From Candidatus Falkowbacteria bacterium (GTDB taxonomy: Bacteria; Patescibacteriota; Patescibacteriia; UBA11705; JABHMO01), in contig JABHAL010000013.1 in the NCBI GenBank assembly GCA_018674305.1, forward strand, positions 8,553 to 72,552: 64,000 nt of DNA. The letters run 5' to 3'. Every line of letters begins with the position of its first letter. Within the stretch, counting starts at the first letter, position 1. Below are positions 11,342 to 51,925 of this stretch, piece by piece. Both the position numbers and the translations under genes were made by a program. The notes beneath the pieces were generated by a model. That model was not told the DNA's origin, searched no databases, and was given only the letters and a program-made list of their open reading frames with translations.

Positions 11342-12535
11342 ATGGCAGCAGAAGTATTTGAAAGAACTAAACCCCATGTAAATGTGGGAACAATTGGTCA
11401 CGTTGACCACGGTAAGACAACTTTAACAGCAGCTATCTTAAAGTATCTTATTGGTAAGGGTGGAGTAGCTCAGAATAAAGACGTTAGTCAAATTGACGCA
11501 GCGCCTGAAGAAAAAGCTCGTGGTATTACAATTGCTACAGCTCATGTTGAGTATGAGACTGAAAATCGTCACTATGCTCACGTTGATTGTCCAGGTCATG
11601 CTGATTATGTAAAAAACATGATTACTGGAGCAGCCCAAATGGACGGCGCAATTTTGGTCGTAGCTGCTACAGATGGTCCTATGCCACAAACTAGAGAACA
11701 TATTTTGTTGGCTAGACAGGTTGGTGTCCCATCAATTGTTGTTTTTCTAAACAAAACCGATTTAGTTGATGATAAGGAATTGATCGATTTAGTTGAAGAA
11801 GAAGTTCGTGATTTATTAAAAAAATACGAATTCCCTGGAGATGAAACTCCAATTGTTAGAGGATCAGCTTTGAAGGTGTTAGAAGATCCTGCTAGTGAAG
11901 ATTCAGTTAAGTCTATGCAAGAATTAATGGAAGCTCTAGATACATTTATTCCAGAACCAAAAAGAGATATTGATAAGGATTTTTTAATGCCAATCGAAGA
12001 CGTGTTTTCAATTGAAGGACGTGGAACTGTAGTGACTGGTAGAATAGAAAGAGGTATTGTTAAAGTTAATGAAGAAATAGAGATTGTTGGTATTCGTGAT
12101 AATCAAAAAACAATCGTAACCGGTGTGGAAATGTTTAATAAGACCTTGAATGAAGGTCGCGCTGGTGATAATGCAGGTATTCTGCTACGTGGTTTGAAAA
12201 AGGACCAAGTAGAAAGAGGGCAGGTTTTGTCTAAGCCAGGTACAGTTAAACCTCATACAGAATTCCAATGCGAAGTTTATGTATTGTCAAAAGATGAAGG
12301 TGGTAGACACAAACCATTTTTCAAGGGATATAAACCACAGTTTTACATGAGAACAACAGATGTTACTGGTGAAGTCTTCTTACCTGAAGGTACAGAGATG
12401 GTTATGCCTGGTGACACTGTAAACTTGGACGTTAAGTTAATTACTCCAATTGCCTTAGAAGAATCACAAAGATTTGCTATTCGAGAAGGTGGTAGAACTA
12501 TTGGTGCTGGAGTGATAAGTAAAATTACTAAATAA
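11342..12535 (+). CDS. tuf: elongation factor Tu
   Basis: [18 protein letters not shown] and NKTD motifs. 397 aa. Confidence 0.97.
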
Positions 12536-25642: not shown

Positions 25643-26899
25643 ATGATTAATCCAGAAGTTCAACAACTAAGTGAAAAAGCCCTAAAAGTTAATTTTAACG
25701 AAATTCAACAGGCTCATTTTGATAGATTAATGTCAGAATTAGAAGCAATCTCAGATGGGTTAGGTTTTGCTGAGCTTAAAGCAAAGGCTGAGGCAGGAAG
25801 TAAGGAAGCACTTCAAGTGATGCGCGATTATATCACCAAGAAAGAGCAGATTGTTAAATTTATTGAAACTAAAGAAATATCAAGGGTAAACTGGGAGTTG
25901 GAGTCAGAACCTGTTCTTGAACTACCAGTGGAGAGCATAGAAGCGTGTGATATTTCACCAGACGGCAGTAGATTGATATATATAACAGAAAGTCCAACCT
26001 CTCAAGGTGTTTATGTTAAATATTTGCAGAACAACAAACCGCCAAAGGAGATTTTTGCTAGGACTGCAAATATAGCAAAGATGAAGGATGTAAAATTTGT
26101 TCCAGATGGAGAAAAGGCTTTTATTGTAACTAATAAGCCGGAACTTTACACAGCTTGGTTGCCAACTGACGTTAAAGAAGGTGATTGGGTTCAAGAAAGA
26201 GTTCGTTTAGCACATGCTAAAATGCACGATTGCGCTGTCTCTCCGAATGGGCAAGATATATTGTTTGTTGGTGATGGTTATGTTGAAATAGCTAATTTGG
26301 AAAATATTCATGATCCTAACAGAACGAGATTGGTTTTAAATCTAAAACATGAAGATCCTGATCGCGCAGAAGGTTATATTCAGGCAGGGGTTTGTTTTTC
26401 TCCTGATGGTAAGATTGCTTATGTTCCATTAAACGAGAAAATTTGTAGAATTGATCTTAATAAAAATGATAACCCAATTGGTTTACCAACTTGGGAGAGT
26501 GATGATGTGGGTGAGTCGATTACTCAATTTGATCCGATTTATTCTGTGGCGATCACTTCTGATGGGGAATATTTATTTACAGGCACACAGGACGGCCAGA
26601 TTTCTAAGTGGGAGACGGCTACTGGTAAAGAGATGGCTTTAACAGTAATGGAAGAAAATGATGGTGATATAAATTCGCTAACCACAGCTATTCAAAAGAT
26701 GATTGTTTCTCCGGATAATAAACATTTAATTGTGGGGGATGATTTTGGAAGGTTAACTTTTATTGATATAGAGACAGGTGAACATATTAAAGAAATTCAG
26801 CTACCACAAGCCAGTAGTGTTACAGAATTGAAATTAGTTGGTGAGGATACGATTTATGCGCAAACTGAGACTATGATTCATCGAGTGAAGAGCATATAA
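25643..26899 (+). CDS. family-X paralog (distal copy): conserved N-terminal helical module + beta-propeller-like C-terminus
   Basis: The N-terminal ~75 aa MINPEVQQLSEKALKVNFNEIQQAHFDRLMSELEAISDGLGFAELKAKAEAGSKEALQVMRDYITKKEQIV match the eight paralogs at 42950-51925. The C-terminus has repeated SPDG/SPNG/TSDG..GxxDG..I blades (WD40/PD40-like). Confidence 0.6.
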   Translation: MINPEVQQLSEKALKVNFNEIQQAHFDRLMSELEAISDGLGFAELKAKAEAGSKEALQVMRDYITKKEQIVKFIETKEISRVNWELESEPVLELPVESIEACDISPDGSRLIYITESPTSQGVYVKYLQNNKPPKEIFARTANIAKMKDVKFVPDGEKAFIVTNKPELYTAWLPTDVKEGDWVQERVRLAHAKMHDCAVSPNGQDILFVGDGYVEIANLENIHDPNRTRLVLNLKHEDPDRAEGYIQAGVCFSPDGKIAYVPLNEKICRIDLNKNDNPIGLPTWESDDVGESITQFDPIYSVAITSDGEYLFTGTQDGQISKWETATGKEMALTVMEENDGDINSLTTAIQKMIVSPDNKHLIVGDDFGRLTFIDIETGEHIKEIQLPQASSVTELKLVGEDTIYAQTETMIHRVKSI

Positions 26900-27379: not shown

Positions 27380-28045
27380 ATGGAAAAGTTGCAAAAAACT
27401 AAAGCAATTGTGTTGAGTACAAAAGAATGGCGGGAGGATGACCTGCTTTTTTCGTTTTTAACAGAAGATTTTGGTAGGATCCAGGCAATTGCTACAGGTT
27501 CAAAAAAAATAACCAGTAAACTGGTAGGGCATTTAAGTACGCCAGGAATTGTTGAATTGATATTTGTACAGGGCAAGGCGCAAAAAAAGATTACTCACGC
27601 GTATTTAATAAAAACTTTCAAGTTGAATGAACCTGATGATTTCTATTTTTTAAATTTAGCCTGGGAGATTATCGATAAGGCAGTTTTGGAAGAAACTGCC
27701 TATAGCGAGGTTTGGCAATTACTCAGCTGGTTGTCCATAAATATTACTAATTACCAGATGTTTGAACAAAAAAGATTTATTGTAAATATTTTTTTAATTA
27801 AGTTATTGAATCTTCTAGGTTTTCGAATTAATTTGGAAAAACAAAGGAAGAATTTTAATATCAAAACTGCCCAAATAATTAGCCAACTTCAAAATGGGCA
27901 AGTTAGACCTGATTTTAGTATTTCTAAAAATGATAATCAAGCCTTATTTAAGTTTTTACAACGGTATTTGCAATATAATTTGGAACAACCATTTAACAGT
28001 TTTAAAATTGCGGGCACTATTGACAAATCAATCAAATTAGTCTAA
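27380..28045 (+). CDS. recO: DNA repair protein RecO-like
   Basis: N-terminal OB-fold pattern (KAIVLSTKEWREDDLLFSFLTEDFGRIQAIATGSKK) and a size typical of RecO. No zinc finger. Confidence 0.5.
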   Translation: MEKLQKTKAIVLSTKEWREDDLLFSFLTEDFGRIQAIATGSKKITSKLVGHLSTPGIVELIFVQGKAQKKITHAYLIKTFKLNEPDDFYFLNLAWEIIDKAVLEETAYSEVWQLLSWLSINITNYQMFEQKRFIVNIFLIKLLNLLGFRINLEKQRKNFNIKTAQIISQLQNGQVRPDFSISKNDNQALFKFLQRYLQYNLEQPFNSFKIAGTIDKSIKLV

Positions 28046-28085
28046 AATTATATATTAAATTGTTCATTATAAATTAGGGGGAGGA

Positions 28086-28835
28086 ATGAAGTTGTTGGTA
28101 GTTCTTGGTGTACTATTGTTTATGTGTACCCAATGTATCAAGGAAATGGAGTTTGGTGAGTGGCATGGTGAAATTCCTGGGGATAATCTTCAAGACGTGA
28201 CAGGTGTTGACGCCAAAGATTTAACTGACACAATCGAGCCAGTCGATACTATTGATCCGATTGACACGATTGAACCAGTTGATACAGTTGATCCGATTGA
28301 CACGGTCGATCCAATCGACAATATTGATCCTATCGATACAATTGACCCAATTGACACGTTTTCAGAGATAGTTAAGGAAGTCATAGTTCCAATTGAAACA
28401 CAGTTAGAAGTGATTGAGTGTGCTCCAGGTTACCAGTATGACCCGGAGTCGGGTGAATGTGTTTCATTTTGTCCAGCTGATAAATATTACGAAGAGCAAT
28501 TGGGGCAGTGTTTTTTCTATCCCTGTTGTGACTTGAATTCACAGTGGTCAGTTAGCGTGATGGATACTGAAACATCTTTGTTCACTATTTATCAGTTGAA
28601 CTTGAATCAGCAGGTTGCTTATTTGCAAGGAGAACTAACGTTAGCGTCTCCACCTGAAATTGGTAACTGTGTTGGGCATTTACAGAAAAAAGAATTCACA
28701 CTTACTTGTCAAAATGCTGAATACAGCTTACTTCTAACGTCAGAAACCACTTTAGAAGGGGAGGTTTTTGGGTTTTATAGTTATAGCTTTATTGATGGAA
28801 CTTTTCAAAACGGTCCGTTCAATATGACTAAATAA
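28086..28835 (+). CDS. secreted/lipoprotein-like Cys-rich protein with (DPIDTI)n repeat region
   Basis: Strong SD (aGGGGGAGGaATG) and a signal peptide (MKLLVVLGVLLFMCTQC). A tandem DTIEPV/DPIDTV repeat is followed by a C-terminal ~150-aa domain with about 8 Cys, which is ~85-90% identical to its paralog at 28955..29734. Confidence 0.6.
   Translation: MKLLVVLGVLLFMCTQCIKEMEFGEWHGEIPGDNLQDVTGVDAKDLTDTIEPVDTIDPIDTIEPVDTVDPIDTVDPIDNIDPIDTIDPIDTFSEIVKEVIVPIETQLEVIECAPGYQYDPESGECVSFCPADKYYEEQLGQCFFYPCCDLNSQWSVSVMDTETSLFTIYQLNLNQQVAYLQGELTLASPPEIGNCVGHLQKKEFTLTCQNAEYSLLLTSETTLEGEVFGFYSYSFIDGTFQNGPFNMTK
28227..28358 (+). repeat. 18-nt (hexapeptide DPIDT[IV]) tandem repeat inside CDS
   Basis: About 7 tandem copies of gatccgattgacacgatt variants, in frame. 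Confidence 0.8.
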
Positions 28836-28838
28836 ACA

Positions 28839-28872
28839 AAAAAGAGGATGTCTCAAGTACATGCCTCTTTTT
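28839..28872 (+). terminator. rho-independent terminator
   Basis: aaagaggatgt...acatgcctcttt hairpin followed by TTTTT. Confidence 0.55.
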
Positions 28873-28954
28873 AATTATAAATCAGAACTTGACAATCTTC
28901 TGTATTTATATTAAACTATTATATAATTTGATTGTTCTTTATAGGGAGGAAGAA

Positions 28955-29734
28955 ATGAGACAACAGAATATACTTTTGTTTATTCTAGTGCAAGTTGTTC
29001 TTATGGCATGTATCAGTAAACCACCACCTTGGCGACCAGATGGCTGGCTTGAAGTGACTAAAGAGGTTTTTCTTGATGTTAATGAAATCAAGGTAGTTGA
29101 TCAGTTCGAAGTAAAGTACGATATGACGGCTCTTGAATTAAAAGAAGTAGAAACGAAAGATTTTATTGCTGTTGGGGATGAATATGATGCTAGTGATCAA
29201 GGTGAGGTAGAGCTTATTGATCTTGTTGCGGAGTTGTTAGATCAAAAAACACAAAAGGATCTGGAGATCTTAGATTATTTTGGTGAGCTAGATCAGTTTG
29301 AAGAGGAAGTCATTGAGTGTCCTCAGGGTTATCAATATGATCCTGAAGCAGGGGAGTGTGTTTCGTTTTGTCCGGCAGATAAGTATTATGAAGATAAGTT
29401 GGGCCAGTGTTTTTTCTATCCTTGCTGTGACTTAAATGCACAATGGTCAGTTAGCGTGATGGATACTGAAACATCTTCGTTTACTGTTTATCAAGTGAAA
29501 TTGAATCAGCAGGTTGCCTATTTGCAAGGAGAATTGACGCTAACGTCTCCATCTGAAATTGCTAACTGTGTGGGGTATTTACAGAAAAAAGAATTCGCAC
29601 TTACTTGTCAAAATGCTCAGTACAGCTTACTTCTAACGTCAGAGACCACTTCAGAAGATGAGGTTTTTGGGTTTTACAGTTATAGCTTTACTGATGGAAC
29701 TTTTCAAAACGGTCCGTTTAATATGTCAAAGTAA
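28955..29734 (+). CDS. secreted/lipoprotein-like Cys-rich protein (paralog of 28086..28835)
   Basis: The start is set at MRQQNILLFILVQVVLMAC (LMAC lipobox-like), preceded by the SD agGGAGGaagaaATG. It has an acidic variable N-terminus. The C-terminal Cys-rich domain is near-identical at the DNA level to 28400-28835. Confidence 0.6.
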   Translation: MRQQNILLFILVQVVLMACISKPPPWRPDGWLEVTKEVFLDVNEIKVVDQFEVKYDMTALELKEVETKDFIAVGDEYDASDQGEVELIDLVAELLDQKTQKDLEILDYFGELDQFEEEVIECPQGYQYDPEAGECVSFCPADKYYEDKLGQCFFYPCCDLNAQWSVSVMDTETSSFTVYQVKLNQQVAYLQGELTLTSPSEIANCVGYLQKKEFALTCQNAQYSLLLTSETTSEDEVFGFYSYSFTDGTFQNGPFNMSK

Positions 29735-29736
29735 AC

Positions 29737-29772
29737 AAAAAAGAGGGTGTGAATGTACATTCCTCTTTTTCG
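29737..29772. terminator. bidirectional rho-independent terminator between convergent genes
   Basis: aaaagagggtgtgaatgtacattcctcttttt is a duplicated version of the terminator at 28839. Confidence 0.5.
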
Positions 29773-29785
29773 TGTGTTAAAAAGT

Positions 29786-30961
29786 TTATCTCCGATTGTT
29801 ATTACAGCGTGGTAGTCCCCAGTTGAACCAAGAACAAGTTTTTTCCTTGGTTGACGTGCAGATACCTTGCTGACACGCCAGTTCCATTTTGGGTTCATAC
29901 CGATTGATATCCACTGAGATTTCAATTAATTCAGCAATTTTTTCAATCGGCATAATCGTTGGAGTCACGTCGGGTGTCGATAGACTGCCATTCAAAATGA
30001 AATGCCCAGATTTGCCAGAGCAATGGAAATACCATCTTCGCATCGGTCCATCGCCTTCCTTCATTAGAGCCTGCCAGTTCGTGACTGTGACAGAGCCAAG
30101 AGCTTTTTGCTCTTCGAGTCGCAGCATCAGAATCAAGCTGTACAATTTCAGGTTGGCCTGTTTCTTGGTGTGAACCATGGTCTGGCCAGTAGATTTCATT
30201 TGCAGAACAATGTCAGCACCTTTGTACCTGCCTGCCTTGGCCATTTCACTGCTGTCAGATTTGATGACCAAAAGCTGTAGCTTTCTGCCTTTACCAGGTC
30301 CTGGGATTTCTCGCATGTCCCCGTTGGATTCCAACTCGGCAACTGCAGCATTGAATTGATCAGATTGCTCTTTTCTTGCAGCGGCGATGTGATCATCCCA
30401 AAGCTTAATGATGTCAGGCCGGTTAGCAAAGTGGCCATGTACAACATTTGACACATTGGCAACCGCGAAGACGTACTTCTTCTTTGGGACACTGAACATT
30501 GACTGGAAAGCAGTAAGTCCCCAGTTAATGTTTCTGATCTGACTGTGTGGCATCACCCGTCGGAGAAGGTTGATGCAAGAGGCCAGTCCGTTTCGAACGT
30601 CAATACCCTCAATATCTGCAGAGTACAGATACTTGAGAATTTCTTTGACGTTTGGCAAATTTGAAACCCCCAATGACTTGGCAACCAGTGTGGCTGCGCA
30701 ATCTTTTTTGTCTCTTGCTTTGCCAGTGCCATTGTCTGGGTGTTCGTCGAATTCGTTTCCCATTGTGCCAACGATAACGACACCACCAGACGTGTGTTCC
30801 GCCACCCACTCGGGAGTAGCATACCTCTCGATGAGAACAGCTGCTGCGATTTCGTCTGCGTGTGGACCAACGTGGGTTAAAAACCACAGAGCCTCTCCTG
30901 CCGCAAAAATAGGGAAACGGACATAGTTACTGTGTTCTTCAAGCCTAGATAGCTGGTTCAA
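29786..30961 (-). CDS. hypothetical protein, compositionally atypical (about 47% GC vs ~35% background)
   Basis: 391 aa. Uninterrupted ORF with a C-terminal Cys-rich tail (CQQGICTSTKEKTCSWFNWGLPRC). GC content is clearly higher than in flanking DNA. It lies adjacent to the tRNA pair. Confidence 0.5.
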   Translation of the reverse strand: MNQLSRLEEHSNYVRFPIFAAGEALWFLTHVGPHADEIAAAVLIERYATPEWVAEHTSGGVVIVGTMGNEFDEHPDNGTGKARDKKDCAATLVAKSLGVSNLPNVKEILKYLYSADIEGIDVRNGLASCINLLRRVMPHSQIRNINWGLTAFQSMFSVPKKKYVFAVANVSNVVHGHFANRPDIIKLWDDHIAAARKEQSDQFNAAVAELESNGDMREIPGPGKGRKLQLLVIKSDSSEMAKAGRYKGADIVLQMKSTGQTMVHTKKQANLKLYSLILMLRLEEQKALGSVTVTNWQALMKEGDGPMRRWYFHCSGKSGHFILNGSLSTPDVTPTIMPIEKIAELIEISVDINRYEPKMELACQQGICTSTKEKTCSWFNWGLPRCNNNRR

Positions 30962-31203: not shown

Positions 31204-31279
31204 GCTCGTATAGCTCAGGGGTTAGAGCACCACGCTTATAACGTGGGGGTCGATGGTTCAATCCCATCTACGAGCACCA
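31204..31279 (+). tRNA. tRNA-Ile (anticodon UAU)
   Basis: Manual fold: acceptor gctcgta/tacgagc, D stem gctc/gagc, anticodon stem ccacg/cgtgg with loop cuUAUaa, T arm gatgg-ttcaatc-ccatc, discriminator a and encoded CCA. Confidence 0.75.
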
Positions 31280-34249: not shown

Positions 34250-37200
34250 ATGGACAAAACCTATCAATCAAAAAAATTCGAAGACAAGATTTATAAAAAC
34301 TGGATAAAAAAAGATTTATTCAATCCAGACAAATACACCGGAGAACCATATTCAATAATGATGCCACCACCAAACGTGACCGGTGTTTTGCATTTGGGCC
34401 ATGCTTTGGAAAATTCTTTAATGGACTCAATGGCGCGTTATCAGAGATTGCAAGGCAAAAAAGTTTTACTTTTACCAGGTGTAGATCATGCTGCAGTGGC
34501 AACTCAAGCCAAGGTCGAAAAGATTTTGATTGAACAAGGCATGGAAAATCCTAGGCAAGAACTGGGTAGGGACAAGTTATTAGAAAAAGTTAAAAAATAC
34601 GCGGATGAGTCACGTGACACAATTCTAAAGCAAATTCGAAGGATGGGGACCAGTTGTGATTGGAGTCGTTTTGCTTATACATTTGATAAAGAAAGAAATC
34701 AAGCTGTAAATAAGGTCTTTAAGAAAATGTATGACGACGGCCTGATTTATCGTGGGTACAAAGTAATTAATTGGTCAGTCAAGGGTCAGTCAACTTGTTC
34801 AGATGATGAACTTGAACATAAAGAACGAGAAGCGAAGTTGTATACTTTTAAATATTCAAAAGATTTCCCAATTGAAATCGCGACTACACGACCGGAAACT
34901 AAACTTGGTGATACTGCAGTGGCAGTCAATCCAAAAGATAAACGTTATAAAAAATATATTGGACAAGAGCTTGAAGTTGATTTTTGTGGTAATAAGTTGA
35001 AACTAAAAATAATCTCTGACCCAGAAGTAGATCCAGATTTTGGGACTGGTGCGCTTGGGGTTACGCCGGCTCATAGTCCAGTTGATTTTGAAATGTATGA
35101 AAAGCAAAAAGCACTGAAACAGCCAATTGGTTTAATTCCGGTGATTGGAGCTGACGGAAAAATGACCAAAATGGCTGGCGCAGAGTTTGTGGGATTAAGC
35201 GTAGAAAAAGCTCGGGATAAAGTTGTTAAAAAACTCAAAGCTAACGGTTTATTTATAAAAGAAGAAGATATAATGCAAAACGTGGGAACTTCAGATCGTT
35301 TCGGTGACGTGGTAGAAGCAATTCCAATGACTCAATGGTTTGTTGATGTGAACAAAGAGATCCCAGGTAAGAAAAAAAGTTTAAAACAATTAATGACGCA
35401 GGCCGTTAACAAAGGACATAAAGGAAAAGGTGATCAGAAGATCAATATTGCTCCTCAGCATTTTGAAAAAATATATTTTCAGTGGATTGATAATTTGCGT
35501 GACTGGTGCATTTCTCGGCAGATTTGGTTTGGCCATCGTATCCCTGTTTGGTACAAAGAAGGAAATTCAGTTGTCGGAATTCGCCATGGTGAAGCAGAAA
35601 ATAATGCTCAGGATTATTTAAATGGTGATATTGATAATAATCATTTTGCATTAACAAAAAAGGGTCAAAAACAAGTTGAACAAGCGGCTGAAGAATTAGC
35701 AGATCAAAAATTTGATTTAATTTATACTTCTGATTTTCTACGAACTAAGCAAACTGCAAAAATTTTAGCTGACAAGTTGGGAGTTAAACAGGTGATTGAA
35801 GACCCTCGTTTACGGGAATATGGTATGGGCGAATTTGAAGGTAATGCAGATGGTAGTTTGAGTAGATGCCGTTGTGGTCACTTTGCTGATTGGAAAAATG
35901 CTAATCCTCATGGAGTTGAATCATGGACAAGTGTTTACGGTAGAACTATGGCTGTGTTAGAAGAAATAAAACAAAAACATACTGATAAAAAAGTTTTAAT
36001 TGTCTCTCATGGTGAAATTCTTCGTTATATATCTTCTTATGGCAGAAACTTAGAGCCAGAACAAACCTTTTTACTCCCTTATCCTCAGAACGCTGGAACA
36101 ATCAAGGTGGATTTAAATGAAGAACAAATTAAAGTGAGTGATCAACCAGTCAATGATCCAGGTTGGCATCAAGACCCTGACACTTTGGATACCTGGTTTT
36201 CTTCAGGGTTGTGGACATTCTCAACTTTAGGTTGGCCGGAGAACAATAAGGAAAAAAATAAAGAAAAAAAGAAAATAATAAACGACTTAAAAACTTTTCA
36301 CCCGACCAGCTGGATGCAAATGGGATATGAGCTTTTATTTTTTTGGATGGCTAGAATGATTTTGATGTCCACTTACGTTATGGACGAAATCCCTTTTAAG
36401 AATGTTTACATTCACGGTATGCTCCGTGACGAAAAAGGCCAGAAGTTTTCTAAGTCAGCAGGTAATGGTGTGGATCCAATTGAAGTTATTGATAAATATG
36501 GAGCAGATGCTCTACGTTGGGCACTGTTGATTGGCATTTCCCCTGGTAATGACTCTGCTTTTTACGACGAAAAAGTTGAAAGTGCTCGAAATTTAGTCAA
36601 TAAACTTTGGAATGTGTCGCGTTATATTATAGGAGATATAGGTGATAAAGGAGATAGAGGAGAGAACAAAGAGACCTTAGCTGATGCGTGGATTTTATCA
36701 CGATTTAATCAACTCAAGGAGCGAGTAACAAAATTATTGGATGAATTTAATTTCTCAGCAGCAGGTGAAGAGCTACGAGAGTTTACTTGGAGTGAATTTG
36801 CGGATTGGTACATCGAAATATCAAAAATCAAAGATCAAAATTCTGAATTAAGAAAGAAAATTTTAGTAAAAATTCTCAAAGAGCTCTTGGTTATGTGGCA
36901 CCCGTATGTGCCTTTTGTTACCCAAGCGATATGGCAACAGTTTGATCCCAAAGAAGATATAATGATAACTCAGTGGCCAAAGGTGGATAAAGCTTTAATT
37001 AACAAGCCAAAGGAACAAAAATTTGCTATAATTAAGGAGGTAATTATTAAAATTCGTAATTTACGGTCAGAGTACAAAATAGATCCAGGCAAAAGAATAA
37101 AGGTGTTATTGAAAACTGATAAGCCTTTTGTTGAAGAGAATAAGGATGTTATAATCGTCTTGGCTCGTTTGGAACAACTTGATTTTGTAGACCATAAACC

Positions 37201-37465
37201 GGAGAAAGCAGCCTCAGCCGTTGTCGATGGGGTGGAGGTTTATTTACCGTTAGCAGATATTCTTGATCCTGAAAAGGAAAAACAGCGGTTGGTATCTGAG
37301 AAAAGCAATTTGGAAACTTTTGTTGGTAACCTAGAAAAGAAATTAAGCAACAAACAGTTCATTTCTAATGCTCCAAAACAAGTAGTTGAAATTGAAAAAC
37401 AAAAGTTGAAAACAGCACAGGAAAATTTATCTAAAATACAACAACAAATAATTAACTTGAATTAA
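34250..37465 (+). CDS. valS: valyl-tRNA synthetase with inserted histidine-phosphatase (PGM-family) domain
   Basis: HIGH (PPPNVTGVLHLGHA), KMSKS (KFSKSAGN), the WCISRQIWFGHRIPVWY and DTWFSSGLW motifs, and a C-terminal coiled coil. 1071 aa against ~880 typical. The extra ~180 aa at aa ~443-625 carry RHGE...LTKKGQ...LIYTSDFLRTKQTA...DPRLREYGMG...LIVSHGEIL. Confidence 0.95.
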   Translation: MDKTYQSKKFEDKIYKNWIKKDLFNPDKYTGEPYSIMMPPPNVTGVLHLGHALENSLMDSMARYQRLQGKKVLLLPGVDHAAVATQAKVEKILIEQGMENPRQELGRDKLLEKVKKYADESRDTILKQIRRMGTSCDWSRFAYTFDKERNQAVNKVFKKMYDDGLIYRGYKVINWSVKGQSTCSDDELEHKEREAKLYTFKYSKDFPIEIATTRPETKLGDTAVAVNPKDKRYKKYIGQELEVDFCGNKLKLKIISDPEVDPDFGTGALGVTPAHSPVDFEMYEKQKALKQPIGLIPVIGADGKMTKMAGAEFVGLSVEKARDKVVKKLKANGLFIKEEDIMQNVGTSDRFGDVVEAIPMTQWFVDVNKEIPGKKKSLKQLMTQAVNKGHKGKGDQKINIAPQHFEKIYFQWIDNLRDWCISRQIWFGHRIPVWYKEGNSVVGIRHGEAENNAQDYLNGDIDNNHFALTKKGQKQVEQAAEELADQKFDLIYTSDFLRTKQTAKILADKLGVKQVIEDPRLREYGMGEFEGNADGSLSRCRCGHFADWKNANPHGVESWTSVYGRTMAVLEEIKQKHTDKKVLIVSHGEILRYISSYGRNLEPEQTFLLPYPQNAGTIKVDLNEEQIKVSDQPVNDPGWHQDPDTLDTWFSSGLWTFSTLGWPENNKEKNKEKKKIINDLKTFHPTSWMQMGYELLFFWMARMILMSTYVMDEIPFKNVYIHGMLRDEKGQKFSKSAGNGVDPIEVIDKYGADALRWALLIGISPGNDSAFYDEKVESARNLVNKLWNVSRYIIGDIGDKGDRGENKETLADAWILSRFNQLKERVTKLLDEFNFSAAGEELREFTWSEFADWYIEISKIKDQNSELRKKILVKILKELLVMWHPYVPFVTQAIWQQFDPKEDIMITQWPKVDKALINKPKEQKFAIIKEVIIKIRNLRSEYKIDPGKRIKVLLKTDKPFVEENKDVIIVLARLEQLDFVDHKPEKAASAVVDGVEVYLPLADILDPEKEKQRLVSEKSNLETFVGNLEKKLSNKQFISNAPKQVVEIEKQKLKTAQENLSKIQQQIINLN

Positions 37466-48952: not shown

Positions 48953-49648
48953 ATGTTAACTCCTGAACACAATTTAACTGAACGCTCACTCCAAGCTAAC
49001 TTCACCGAAGTTCAGCAAGCTCATTTCGATAAATTAATGTCTGAATTAGAAGTGATTTCAGATGGTTTGGGTTTTGCTGAGCTTAAAGCAAAGGCTGAAG
49101 AGGGAGATAAAGAAGCCCTTCAGGTAATGAGGGATTATATTACTAAGAAAGAACAGATTGTTGAGTTTATTGAGAAGAAGGAAGTGCCTGAGAATGAGTG
49201 GCGTGAAGAGGAACTTAAAGTTGGAGATGAGGTCTTTGTTTTGAATACTGCGCATTTTGGAGAAAAAGTGAAAATTTTAGATATTAACGATTTAGGTAAA
49301 GTTAAAAGGTATTATGTTAAGGTCAAGGAAGGTGCCAATACAAATTTACGATTTTTTCAGGATTGGTATTTAGCCAAAAATAAACCAGAAGAATTTGATG
49401 CTGATCGAGCGGGTAAAATTTATTTACTTGATTTAAAAAAATATAACGGGCTTACTGTCGGCGATTTTTTTTCTAAAGGTGTAGAAAATAGAGAAATTTT
49501 AGGTTTCAAAATGCCAGAACATCCCCATCACCGAGTCGGATTAACGATTGTTGTTAAAAAAGACGGCGAGGCAACATTTTTAATGTCATACAAAAGATTC
49601 ATAGAACTAAATGAGGAGCAAAATTATAAAAAAGTCGAAAAGTCTTAA
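48953..49648 (+). CDS. family-X paralog E (231 aa): N-terminal module + SH3/KOW-like units
   Basis: N-terminus MLTPEHNLTERSLQANFTEVQQAHFDKLMSELEVISDGLGFAELKAKAEEGDKEALQVMRDYITKKEQIVEFIEKKEVPENEW. The C-terminus is colinear with F, G and H. Confidence 0.65.
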   Translation: MLTPEHNLTERSLQANFTEVQQAHFDKLMSELEVISDGLGFAELKAKAEEGDKEALQVMRDYITKKEQIVEFIEKKEVPENEWREEELKVGDEVFVLNTAHFGEKVKILDINDLGKVKRYYVKVKEGANTNLRFFQDWYLAKNKPEEFDADRAGKIYLLDLKKYNGLTVGDFFSKGVENREILGFKMPEHPHHRVGLTIVVKKDGEATFLMSYKRFIELNEEQNYKKVEKS

Positions 49649-49689
49649 ACACGTAACACATAACACGTATCCTGTAACAATCATAAAAA

Positions 49690-50385
49690 ATGTTAAATCC
49701 CGAACAACAATTAATAGAAAGATCTCTTCACGCTAACTTCACTGAAGTTCAGCAACAACATTTTGATAAACTAATGTCTGAGCTGGAACAGATTTCAGGT
49801 GGTTTAGGTTTTTCTGAATTTAAAGCTAAAGCTGAAACTGGTGACAAAGAAGCATTACAAGTAATGCGTGATTATATCGCCAAGAAAGAGCAGGTTGTTG
49901 AGTTTATTGAGAAGAAGGAAGTTCCTGAGAATGAATGGCGAGAGGAGGAGCTTAAAGTTGGAGACGAGGTTTTTATATTGTATGCCGCACATTTTGGAGA
50001 AAAAGTAAAAATTATAGATATTGACGATTTAGGTAAAGTTAAAAAGTATCATGTTCAGGTCAGTGTAGTTGACGATACAAATTCTCGGTTTTTGAAAGAT
50101 AGTCAATTAGCTAAAAATAAACCAGAAAAATATTATGCTGACAGATTGAGTGAAATTGATTTACTGGACTTGAAAAAATATATAGATCTTTGTGTGGACG
50201 ATGTTTATTCTGATGGTCAGGAGATAAAAGAAATTATTGGGTTTATGATGCCAATCGCTGCAAATCATGAGGATGGTTTAACAATAGTGTATAAAGCAAC
50301 TAATGGTCAGACATATGCAACATCATACAGACGTTTTAAACAGATTAATCGTGGACTCGATTATAAAAAAGTAGAAAAGTCTTAA
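49690..50385 (+). CDS. family-X paralog F (231 aa)
   Basis: Full-length homolog of E (N-terminal module plus VGDEVFIL..GEKVKII..LAKNKPEKY..LLDLKKY). Confidence 0.65.
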   Translation: MLNPEQQLIERSLHANFTEVQQQHFDKLMSELEQISGGLGFSEFKAKAETGDKEALQVMRDYIAKKEQVVEFIEKKEVPENEWREEELKVGDEVFILYAAHFGEKVKIIDIDDLGKVKKYHVQVSVVDDTNSRFLKDSQLAKNKPEKYYADRLSEIDLLDLKKYIDLCVDDVYSDGQEIKEIIGFMMPIAANHEDGLTIVYKATNGQTYATSYRRFKQINRGLDYKKVEKS

Positions 50386-50447
50386 GCGTATAGCGTGAAT
50401 CGTATAGCGCGTAACACATATCCCGTACCCCGTAACAAAATTAAAAT

Positions 50448-51158
50448 ATGATCAATCCCGAGCAACAATTAACAGAAAAATCTCTCCATGCTAACTTTAC
50501 CGAAGTTCAGCAACAACATTTTGATAAACTAATGTCTGAGTTGGAGGTGATCTCAGGTGGATTAGGTTTTGCTGAACTTAAAGAGAAGGCTGACGCGGGT
50601 AATAAAGAAGCATTGCAAGTAATGCGTGATTATATCGCCAAGAAAGAGCAAATTGTTGAGTTTATTGAAAAGAAGGAGATGCCTGAGAATGAATGGCGAG
50701 ATGAGGAATTCAAGTTTGGTGATGAAGTCTATATAGTGGGAGGGGGTTATTCTGGTAGAAAAGGAACAGTTGAGAATAATGATAGTTCTGGTAACGTAAT
50801 TCGAGTACTGGTTTTTAGCAAAGATGAGAATGGCGATGCCGAAATAATTTATTTTAATCCTGAAGATGTAGCCAAAAATAAACCGGAAAAAATCCAATCT
50901 GACCGACTTGGTGAAATTGAGTTACTTGATTTGAAAAAATATGAAGATTATGCTGTTGGTGATATTTTTGTGCGACATAATAGGACTAAAACAAAAACAA
51001 GAGAGATTTTAGGTTTTAGTATGCCTGATAGCTTTACTCACGAAGAAGGCCTGAAAATTGTTTTTAAATATGGTGATGGTGATGTGTATACTGCACGTCG
51101 CTTCAGATTCGAGAATGAAATTATTGCTTTAGTTTACAAAAAAGTAGAAAAGCCTTAA
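50448..51158 (+). CDS. family-X paralog G (236 aa)
   Basis: Full-length homolog of E and F. Its first ~65 nt are identical to H, and it has a near-identical 62-nt upstream spacer. Confidence 0.65.
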   Translation: MINPEQQLTEKSLHANFTEVQQQHFDKLMSELEVISGGLGFAELKEKADAGNKEALQVMRDYIAKKEQIVEFIEKKEMPENEWRDEEFKFGDEVYIVGGGYSGRKGTVENNDSSGNVIRVLVFSKDENGDAEIIYFNPEDVAKNKPEKIQSDRLGEIELLDLKKYEDYAVGDIFVRHNRTKTKTREILGFSMPDSFTHEEGLKIVFKYGDGDVYTARRFRFENEIIALVYKKVEKP

Positions 51159-51220
51159 GCGTATAGCGTGAATCGTATAGCGCGTAACACATATCCCGTA
51201 TCCCGGAACAAAATTAAAAT

Positions 51221-51925
51221 ATGATCAATCCCGAGCAACAATTAACAGAAAAATCTCTCCATGCTAACTTTACCGAAGTTCAACAACGATATTTTGATAA
51301 ATTAATGTCTGAATTGGAAGTGATCTCGGATGGTTTGGGTTTTACTGAACTTAAAGCGACTGCTGAAGCGGGTAATAAAGAGGCTCTTCAAGTAATGAGG
51401 GATTATATCTCCAAGAAAGAACAGATTGTTGAGTTTATTGAGAAAAAAGAATTGCCAGAAGTAAATGAATTGAGAGACGAGGAATTAAAAGTTGGTGATG
51501 AGGTTTTTATATTAGAGAATTTTTCATTTGGAGCAACGGGCAAAATATTAAGTATTCCTAGAAGTTCGGATAGTAAAGCTTTTATGGTTGATGGAATTAA
51601 GGATAGTAATAATCCTTCAATGAAAGAATATGGATTTGAAGGACGATTGTTGGCCAAAAATAAGTCAGAAAAATATAATGCTGATAGACTTGGTGAAATA
51701 GATTTGCTAGACTTAAAAAAGTATAACGATATAACAGTTGGTGATATTTATCGCTCCGAGGATGGTAAAGGAGAAATAGAAGTTGTTGGCTTAAGTATGC
51801 CAATAAATGCTAAGATTGAAGATGGTCTATTAATTGTGTATAAAATAGGTAATGGGCAAACGTATGCCAAGTTAAATCGCTGGTTTCGGCGAGATCTTAA
51901 AGCTCGTAATTATAGAAAAGCATAG
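51221..51925 (+). CDS. family-X paralog H (234 aa)
   Basis: Full-length homolog of E, F and G. Confidence 0.65.
   Translation: MINPEQQLTEKSLHANFTEVQQRYFDKLMSELEVISDGLGFTELKATAEAGNKEALQVMRDYISKKEQIVEFIEKKELPEVNELRDEELKVGDEVFILENFSFGATGKILSIPRSSDSKAFMVDGIKDSNNPSMKEYGFEGRLLAKNKSEKYNADRLGEIDLLDLKKYNDITVGDIYRSEDGKGEIEVVGLSMPINAKIEDGLLIVYKIGNGQTYAKLNRWFRRDLKARNYRKA

Follow-up and report, generated by a model that had tools for sequence, protein, structure and literature searches.

Tandem genes for surface lipoproteins are known to exchange parts with one another. In the lpl tandem lipoprotein cluster of Staphylococcus aureus, recombination at a conserved intragenic segment shuffles the 5' and 3' halves of the genes, and the phylogenies of the two halves disagree (Tsuru & Kobayashi, 2008, PMC2568036). 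Surface lipoproteins with a C-terminal eight-stranded barrel are likewise known from the neisserial proteins NHBA/GNA2132, fHbp and TbpB (C-lobe), and compact barrels that bind small ligands from avidin and streptavidin in the calycin superfamily. Here we describe two adjacent genes, A (28086-28835) and B (28955-29734), both on the + strand of a 64,000-nucleotide (nt) stretch of DNA from a Candidatus Falkowbacteria bacterium (hereafter the window, whose positions serve as coordinates throughout), together with their counterparts A' and B' (A_6 and B_6) in a sister lineage. The predicted products of A and B are membrane-tethered surface proteins in which an acidic stalk carries a small, cysteine-stapled beta-barrel head, and the similarity of the two heads is most simply explained by gene conversion from A into B in the window lineage, rather than by recent duplication. 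We place the probability of the whole explanation, a blend of this architecture and history with a binding function for the head, at roughly 0.7; the architecture and the history of old duplication plus conversion, taken jointly, are very probable.

Duplication and conversion of the A/B pair

In the window by itself, A and B have the look of a recent duplication. BLAST detects a 466-bp repeat (28407-28872 versus 29306-29770) with 86.9% identity and one gap, terminators included, and the shared coding part, 142 amino acids (aa) with eight invariant cysteines, is 87.0% identical in nt and 85% in aa, which bears out the common domain of about eight cysteines that a sequence-only reading of the window had recognised in the two neighbouring genes. 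The same reading proposed that the gene and its terminator had recently been duplicated in tandem, after which the N-termini diverged fast under positive selection, and the pattern in this one genome (87% nt identity over 466 bp with the terminators, next to unalignable N-termini) does fit such a history. The sister lineage, represented by two contigs from two samples (L006/L007), speaks strongly against it. It shows the same synteny and also has a tandem pair, in which A' carries DPIDT repeats and B' an acidic N-terminus; the N-terminal halves are 78% identical in nt between A and A' and 78% between B and B', compared with 39% (unalignable) between A and B, so that the divergence of the N-termini must be older than the split of the two species. 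Moreover, the C-terminal domains of A' and B' are 67% identical and saturated at synonymous sites (proportion of synonymous differences, pS, 0.88), pS between A and sister-B C-domains is 0.87-0.97, the terminator and last codons of window B are B-type and not A-type, and the ratio of nonsynonymous to synonymous substitution rates (dN/dS) is below 0.35 everywhere. A recent duplication is thus highly improbable.

A, B, A' and B' form one clade with 100% bootstrap, and four outgroups have a single copy: L008 and L011, where it occupies the same position, as well as L015 and L016. The presence of the pair in both species, together with the single-copy outgroups, dates the duplication after the divergence of the outgroups and before the split of the two species, and it is therefore old. 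No further A/B paralogues were found in the 64-kb window.

The evidence for a later exchange comes from informative sites classed as A-type or B-type along window B, which delimit a tract of A-type sequence at 29312-29716 (+), patchy in its 5' 115 nt and with a core at 29426-29716. Upstream of the tract 45 of 57 sites are B-type (12 A-type), within it 86 of 102 are A-type (16 B-type), and downstream, where the last three codons and the terminator lie, B-type sites prevail again (12 of 14, with two A-type); the comparison of inside (86 A, 16 B) with outside (14 A, 57 B) gives a Fisher P of 5.6e-18. The terminator of B matches that of sister B' at 44/44 nt. The two window terminators are indeed homologous, as had been claimed, but their co-duplication in a recent event does not hold, since that of B is B-type and lies outside the tract. 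In a tree of the C-domain, window B groups with the A-type clade at 100% bootstrap and with B' at 0%. The core is 90.7% identical between A and B, with a synonymous divergence (dS) of 0.24, against 0.57 between A and A' and 0.70 between B and A'; for the whole C-domain the A-B dS is 0.58, versus 0.74 and 0.82 to A'. Core sites at which A and B agree and differ from A' number 32, versus 15 and 11 for the two alternative pairings, and the neighbouring genes have dS values of 0.57-1.24 between the window and the sister species. A is collinear with A' and orthologous to it from end to end, with nt identities of 78% (N-terminal half) and 86% (C-terminal half); this identifies A as the donor in a nonreciprocal event.

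These data make the following history very probable. A single ancestral gene downstream of recO would have given rise to a tandem copy of the entire unit, promoter to terminator, before the window and sister species split. Much later, and in the window lineage only, nonreciprocal recombination would have copied about 300-400 bp of barrel sequence from A into B, leaving B's own signal peptide, tether, last three codons and terminator untouched, and both heads would have been under purifying selection since. Nor is the conversion itself recent, as dS amounts to 0.24 for the core and to 0.58 for the domain as a whole. What the sequence-only reading called recently duplicated would thus be an old pair, already complete with A and B in the sister lineage, in which one barrel was later overwritten.

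Several observations weigh against this history. The first 120 nt of the domain are mixed (17 A-type and 8 B-type sites, A-B pS 0.85), and at silent sites in this part the paralogues are not closer to each other than the orthologues are; the position of the 5' boundary of the tract and the number of conversion events are uncertain as a result, and the 5' end of the tract would be patchy or else go back to an earlier event. By protein distance A pairs with A' (91%) and not with B, a pairing which requires that the protein sequence of B changed faster once it had been converted, or that B-type patches survived in it. Finally, two pair-bearing lineages are on hand, so that polarity hangs on few outgroups, and by protein distance window B falls just outside A + A'. 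The last two points also speak for a view in which the window state is ancestral and the barrel of sister B diverged by acceleration or was replaced by a foreign homologue. However, B is nearer to A in the core (dS 0.24) than A is to its own orthologue (0.57), which is impossible for a split predating speciation without conversion, and B' is sister to the A-type clade within the four-gene clade, not placed among the outgroups. B' also has residues in common with the outgroups (CPPGY, QCL, VS[FY], NE, Y-N-[YF], K-[NS]-G) where the A-type is derived, and is set apart from the A-type by synonymous saturation, beyond amino-acid change. An ancestral window state is thus very unlikely, and we retain conversion of B by A as the simplest history.

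The mosaic is hardly a product of assembly. Four independent ENA contigs (4.4-128 kb), which come from different samples and assemblers, show 100% identity over the 1740-bp locus, and a fifth contig covers part of the locus, so that the duplication, for which an assembly artefact had been named as a possible refutation, is real. Two anomalies would favour repeat collapse or chimeric assembly: contig L014 switches from B to A with a self-overlap of 141 nt, equal to the assembler's k, and contig L004 breaks inside gene A. Against this, the complete A-B arrangement is the same in the four long contigs, reads can be told apart by the 13% of sites that distinguish A from B, and the sister locus was recovered from two samples; an artefact can be practically discounted. 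The two anomalous contigs deserve a description of their own. L014 (ena:ERZ27250220:k141_1361195, 1040 bp) corresponds to window positions 28762-29643 followed by 28745-28902, and thus runs through the 3' end of A, the spacer and gene B and then into A's terminator and spacer. The change from B-type (45/45 sites) to A-type is clean and falls within 23 nt of identical sequence (29621-29643). The contig encodes P0009, its two ends share exactly 141 nt, and the loop is as long as the tandem period (899). L014 is either an assembly artefact from a de Bruijn loop or a genuine variant of that sample, generated by unequal crossover or conversion. L004 (ena:ERZ27250154:k141_172548) is unrelated to the window over nt 1-75 and then follows gene A from 28772 at 100% identity, so that the junction reflects either a chimera at the end of the contig or a structural variant lacking most of gene A.

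The exchange between A and B resembles that described for lpl (Tsuru & Kobayashi, 2008, PMC2568036) in that tandem lipoprotein paralogues appear to recombine at conserved segments: the ends of the A/B tract fall where the A and B types are most alike, in the cysteine-hairpin region and at the stop/terminator. The protein families are unrelated, and the present pair has only two copies. Whereas lpl shows repeated crossover in a central conserved region and varies among strains, A/B would have undergone a single internal replacement in the 3' half, with B's terminator kept, that is fixed in the species.

Selection on both genes is purifying or relaxed rather than diversifying as had been suggested. 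The dN/dS of the C-domain is 0.09-0.11, and 0.28 in the core since the conversion, while the tethers give 0.19 (A) and 0.33 (B). The combination of an old duplication with a later partial conversion alters any inference on the selection acting on A and B, and the locus illustrates how a high similarity of adjacent paralogues in one genome can be misread as recent duplication and corrected by one sister genome.

Gene organisation, membrane anchors and tethers

A and B lie between recO (27380-28045) and a convergent gene of 391 aa (29786-30961, - strand). A promoter-like site for gene A (28020-28048, +; TTGACA-17-TAAAAT, 11/12 in the promoter scan) is located inside the 3' end of recO, and an SD-like (Shine-Dalgarno) motif, AGGGGGAGG, at 28076-28084 (+) precedes the gene; its GGAGG core ends 1 nt before the ATG, and the run of G residues permits a register with longer spacing. 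Gene A encodes 249 aa and is followed by a terminator hairpin (28839-28872, +) with an A-tract, a stem and a U-tract, at -12 kcal/mol by direct folding. Gene B has a promoter-like site of its own (28889-28917, +; TTGACA-17-TAAACT, 10/12), whose TTGACA is kept in L006, an SD (GGGAGG, 28944-28949, +) 5 nt before the ATG, and a terminator hairpin (29735-29773, +; -14.2 kcal/mol) between B and the convergent gene. The mechanically assigned start of B, a TTG at 28889, falls in the -35 hexamer of its promoter-like site, and the ATG at 28955 is therefore the plausible start; the resulting 259-aa call agrees with NCBI MBT5338626.1, a record labelled 'Candidatus Falkowbacteria bacterium' that also bears out the expected affiliation with the Candidate Phyla Radiation (CPR). 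Both terminators have z values of about -4.4, and 0 of 200 shuffles fold as well. With a promoter-like site, an SD and a terminator for each, A and B would be separately transcribed genes.

Two scan outputs were set aside. Neither real hairpin was picked up by a simple terminator scan, which returned two chance sites inside coding sequences, so direct folding was used instead, and an excess of promoter-like sites (16 versus 6.5 expected) is not biological, coming mostly from TTGACA in the I-D-T codons of the repeat in A. The rarity of strong SDs in the window, another of the earlier claims, was borne out: counted from mechanical open reading frame (ORF) starts, an SD core of at least 5 nt precedes about 5 of the 49 large ORFs, A, B and the 391-aa gene among them. 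The ORFs at 11342 and 15212 are also in the strong-SD set, and about 40 of the 49 have no recognisable SD within 20 nt of their mechanically assigned start.

The N-termini of both proteins are of the signal type, with a basic n-region and a hydrophobic h-region, A starting with MKLLVVLGVLLF and B with MRQQNILLFILVQVVL; in an AlphaFold2 (AF2) model of A, a helix covers residues 3-15. In all 18 family members other than A-type proteins, B included, the h-region is followed by a [GAS]-Cys at residues 15-19. The lipobox of B, L-M-A-C19, is canonical at -1, which suggests that B is a lipid-anchored lipoprotein. That of A (L-F-M-C14 within LLFM-C14; L-F-F-C in the sister orthologue) is not, a point that weakens the lipoprotein assignment for A: with this atypical box, its lipidation is uncertain, and A may be lipidated or left signal-anchored. 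The view that both proteins are exported, membrane-tethered and cysteine-rich with lipobox-like N-termini therefore stands as regards the h-region and [GAS]-Cys, with A's non-canonical box as the part that does not fit.

Between anchor and head, each protein has an acidic tether of about 95-100 aa, made in A of a Pro/Asp/Thr hexapeptide repeat and non-repetitive in B (29% D+E, with a PPPW motif following the lipobox region), in agreement with the contrast first drawn between a tandem repeat in one gene and an acidic region in the other. AF2 of full-length A gives a predicted local distance difference test score (pLDDT) below 50 for residues 12-106, as expected of a disordered tether. Tandem Repeats Finder (TRF) delimits the repeat at 28226-28357 (+), with a period of 18 nt, 7.3 copies and 68% matches; these encode about seven units of the type [IV][DE]P[IV]DT, or seven strict [IV][DE]P[IVT]D[TN] hexapeptides. 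The repeat had been thought prone to slippage and length variation. No repeat-length variants occur among the 4-5 assemblies compared, A' also has seven units despite a dS of about 0.8, and frequent slippage is disfavoured because the units are only 68% alike in DNA. Hexapeptides of the VDT type next to the head are also found in the single-copy outgroups P0013, P0014 and L011, and A's tether thus looks closer than B's to the ancestral form.

The barrel head, its family and its possible function

The C-terminal domain (142 aa; 28407-28832 in A and 29306-29731 in B, both +) consists of two C-x12-C hairpins in its first 36 residues and a barrel with an invariant YPCCD..G.W entry motif. AF2 modelled the head of B with a pLDDT of 91, and an independent run on full-length A gave 90-95 over residues 110-249. 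In the predicted structure, eight antiparallel strands form a closed up-and-down barrel, as in calycins, and we consider the head to be a barrel of the avidin/calycin type on this model, which follows up a recommendation to predict the structure of the cysteine domain. From the strand positions, C88 and C101 are opposed across a hairpin. Since this pair and the two hairpin staples, expected at C5-C18 and C22-C35, use the other cysteines, the invariant vicinal C40-C41 would either form a disulfide of their own or stay free. Among the polar and aromatic residues of the head, those that are invariant include W47, Y62, Y106, Y124, Y126, T56, T100, T114, N103, Q93 and K94-K95.

Likeness to proteins of known structure is confined to shape. 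A Foldseek search of the PDB gave no match at E below 0.001 and listed only generic calycin barrels, and a search of PDB sequences with the family hidden Markov model (HMM) returned no avidin and no solved relative, cyanovirin at E 0.07 being noise. Homology to avidin, considered on account of a resemblance of 'LTSGTTE' to streptavidin, was rejected (hhalign of the family profile against streptavidin plus avidin, probability 0.5%, E 0.12). In contrast to avidin and streptavidin, the A/B head is tethered and disulfide-rich, and it has no detectable sequence homology to them. The neisserial barrel lipoproteins have no sequence similarity to A/B either, and lack the cysteine-hairpin module and disulfides; they sit on a diderm outer-membrane surface, whereas A and B would sit on a CPR cytoplasmic membrane. 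The hairpin unit does have counterparts. Family-profile matches show it recurring as a 4-9-fold CPxGxxWDxxxxxC repeat in other proteins, and the A/B head opens with two copies of the same C-x12-C hairpin; Pfam scores those repeat proteins as partial CBM_14. Membership of A/B in CBM_14 (peritrophin-A) was rejected, with 16.5 bits against a cut-off of 22.1, coverage of profile positions 27-45, or at most about 27-49, of 53 and none of the sequences passing; the six-cysteine pattern of that family is not present in A/B, and chitin binding is without evidence.

Relatives are few. A search of 5.8 billion proteins returned only five, a second search with gene A gave the same five, and an exhaustive HMM search of 1.84 billion cluster representatives (50% identity) gave 16 at E below 1e-10; scans of genome contigs and metagenome contigs contributed one and two further loci. 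Pfam and NCBIfam scans found no model for A/B apart from the sub-threshold CBM_14 match, and no account of the family was found in the literature on Falkowbacteria/Patescibacteria lipoproteins. Full-length members share the plan of a hydrophobic N-terminus leading to [GAS]-Cys (15-19), often KP.PW, a linker of 40-170 aa with 21-34% D+E, and a head with YPCCD..G.W. A and B define a small family of Patescibacteria surface proteins, tethered beta-barrels for which no annotation exists. The advance is modest: the family is assembled from known kinds of parts, the partial conversion is clear but conventional, and nothing known is overturned. A-type proteins (28086-28832; L006 6155-6898) are missing from a 15-billion-protein collection by exact look-up and were never search matches, yet the contigs carry a called gene of 249 or 248 aa at the A-type position. 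This absence is probably a database quirk, and A-type orthologues in other lineages may have been overlooked as a consequence.

As to function, the model invites the tentative proposal, to which we give somewhat less than even odds, that the barrel head acts as an extracellular binding module, which a flexible acidic stalk would keep at a distance from the membrane. Because so many polar and aromatic residues are invariant in this compact, avidin-like barrel, the most likely ligand would be a small polar compound or metabolite, or otherwise a surface molecule of a partner. Through homogenisation, the two paralogues would by now present what is in essence one head, each on a stalk and anchor of its own. 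Four points count against this interpretation: just one of five AF2 models was confident in the first run (B head), from shallow alignments of six sequences; the disulfide pairing and the pocket are deduced from sequence and strand positions; the proposed binding function comes without an assigned ligand or partner; and no conserved operon partner was found, the flanking genes being housekeeping, including those of the distant members L015 and L016.

The same architecture could serve other ends. As in NHBA, fHbp and TbpB, the head may be an adhesin or host-recognition module for a host-cell macromolecule and not a small-ligand binder, a possible but less favoured reading. The strong purifying selection and very conserved barrel (dN/dS about 0.1) are unlike typical host-interface antigens, the best fold matches are compact ligand-binding barrels, and there is no sequence relationship to the three neisserial proteins. 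It is rather improbable that the head is a proteinaceous inhibitor or shield guarding the cell wall, for which the MliC/PliC lysozyme inhibitors and calycin-type protease inhibitors provide examples of the same shape. Returning to binding of a small ligand, a more specific and speculative extension is that the head founds an undescribed, CPR-restricted family of surface-tethered, avidin-like small-molecule scavengers, with YPCCD..G.W as part of a binding or redox site. If so, metabolically reduced Patescibacteria would use it to capture some vitamin, cofactor or metabolite, either from their environment or from a host cell, and gene conversion would hold two differently anchored copies to the same ligand. 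Surface proteins are the likely interface of these reduced-genome bacteria with their surroundings, and a compact, conserved, disulfide-stapled putative binding barrel is a reasonable candidate for expression and ligand screening.

Other features of the window

The convergent 391-aa gene downstream of B has a G+C content of 46-48%, versus about 31-40% around it, and a strong SD (GGAGGTG). It had no match in Pfam, NCBIfam or PDB sequences. A gene of 391 or 394 aa adjoins the lipoprotein gene or genes in three lineages, the window species, L006/L007 and L008.

The window contains a second group of paralogues that are half conserved and half divergent. Four tandem genes (231, 231, 236 and 234 aa) at 48953-51925 (+), none of them with an above-threshold Pfam match, have in common a highly conserved N-terminal module of some 80 aa, MLNPEQQLTE.SL.ANFTEVQQ.HFDKLMSELE.IS.GLGF.E.KAKAE.G.KEALQVMRDYI.KKEQIVEFIEKKE, and diverge in their C-terminal halves. 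This module also stands at the front of a 418-aa WD40/beta-propeller protein at 25643-26899 (+), just upstream of A/B. It is 72-87% identical in nt among the five genes, and no signal peptide is visible.

Beyond the 391-aa gene, a tRNA-Ile with the anticodon TAT (UAU) is encoded at 31204-31279 (+), beside tRNA-Val(GAC). The usual decoder of AUA in bacteria is a tRNA with a CAT anticodon modified by TilS, and a tRNA-Ile with UAU is uncommon. Further along, the valyl-tRNA synthetase (1071 aa, 34250-37465, +) has, in a precomputed domain list, a His_Phos_1 Pfam match inside its tRNA-synt_1 region, as does that of the sister species.

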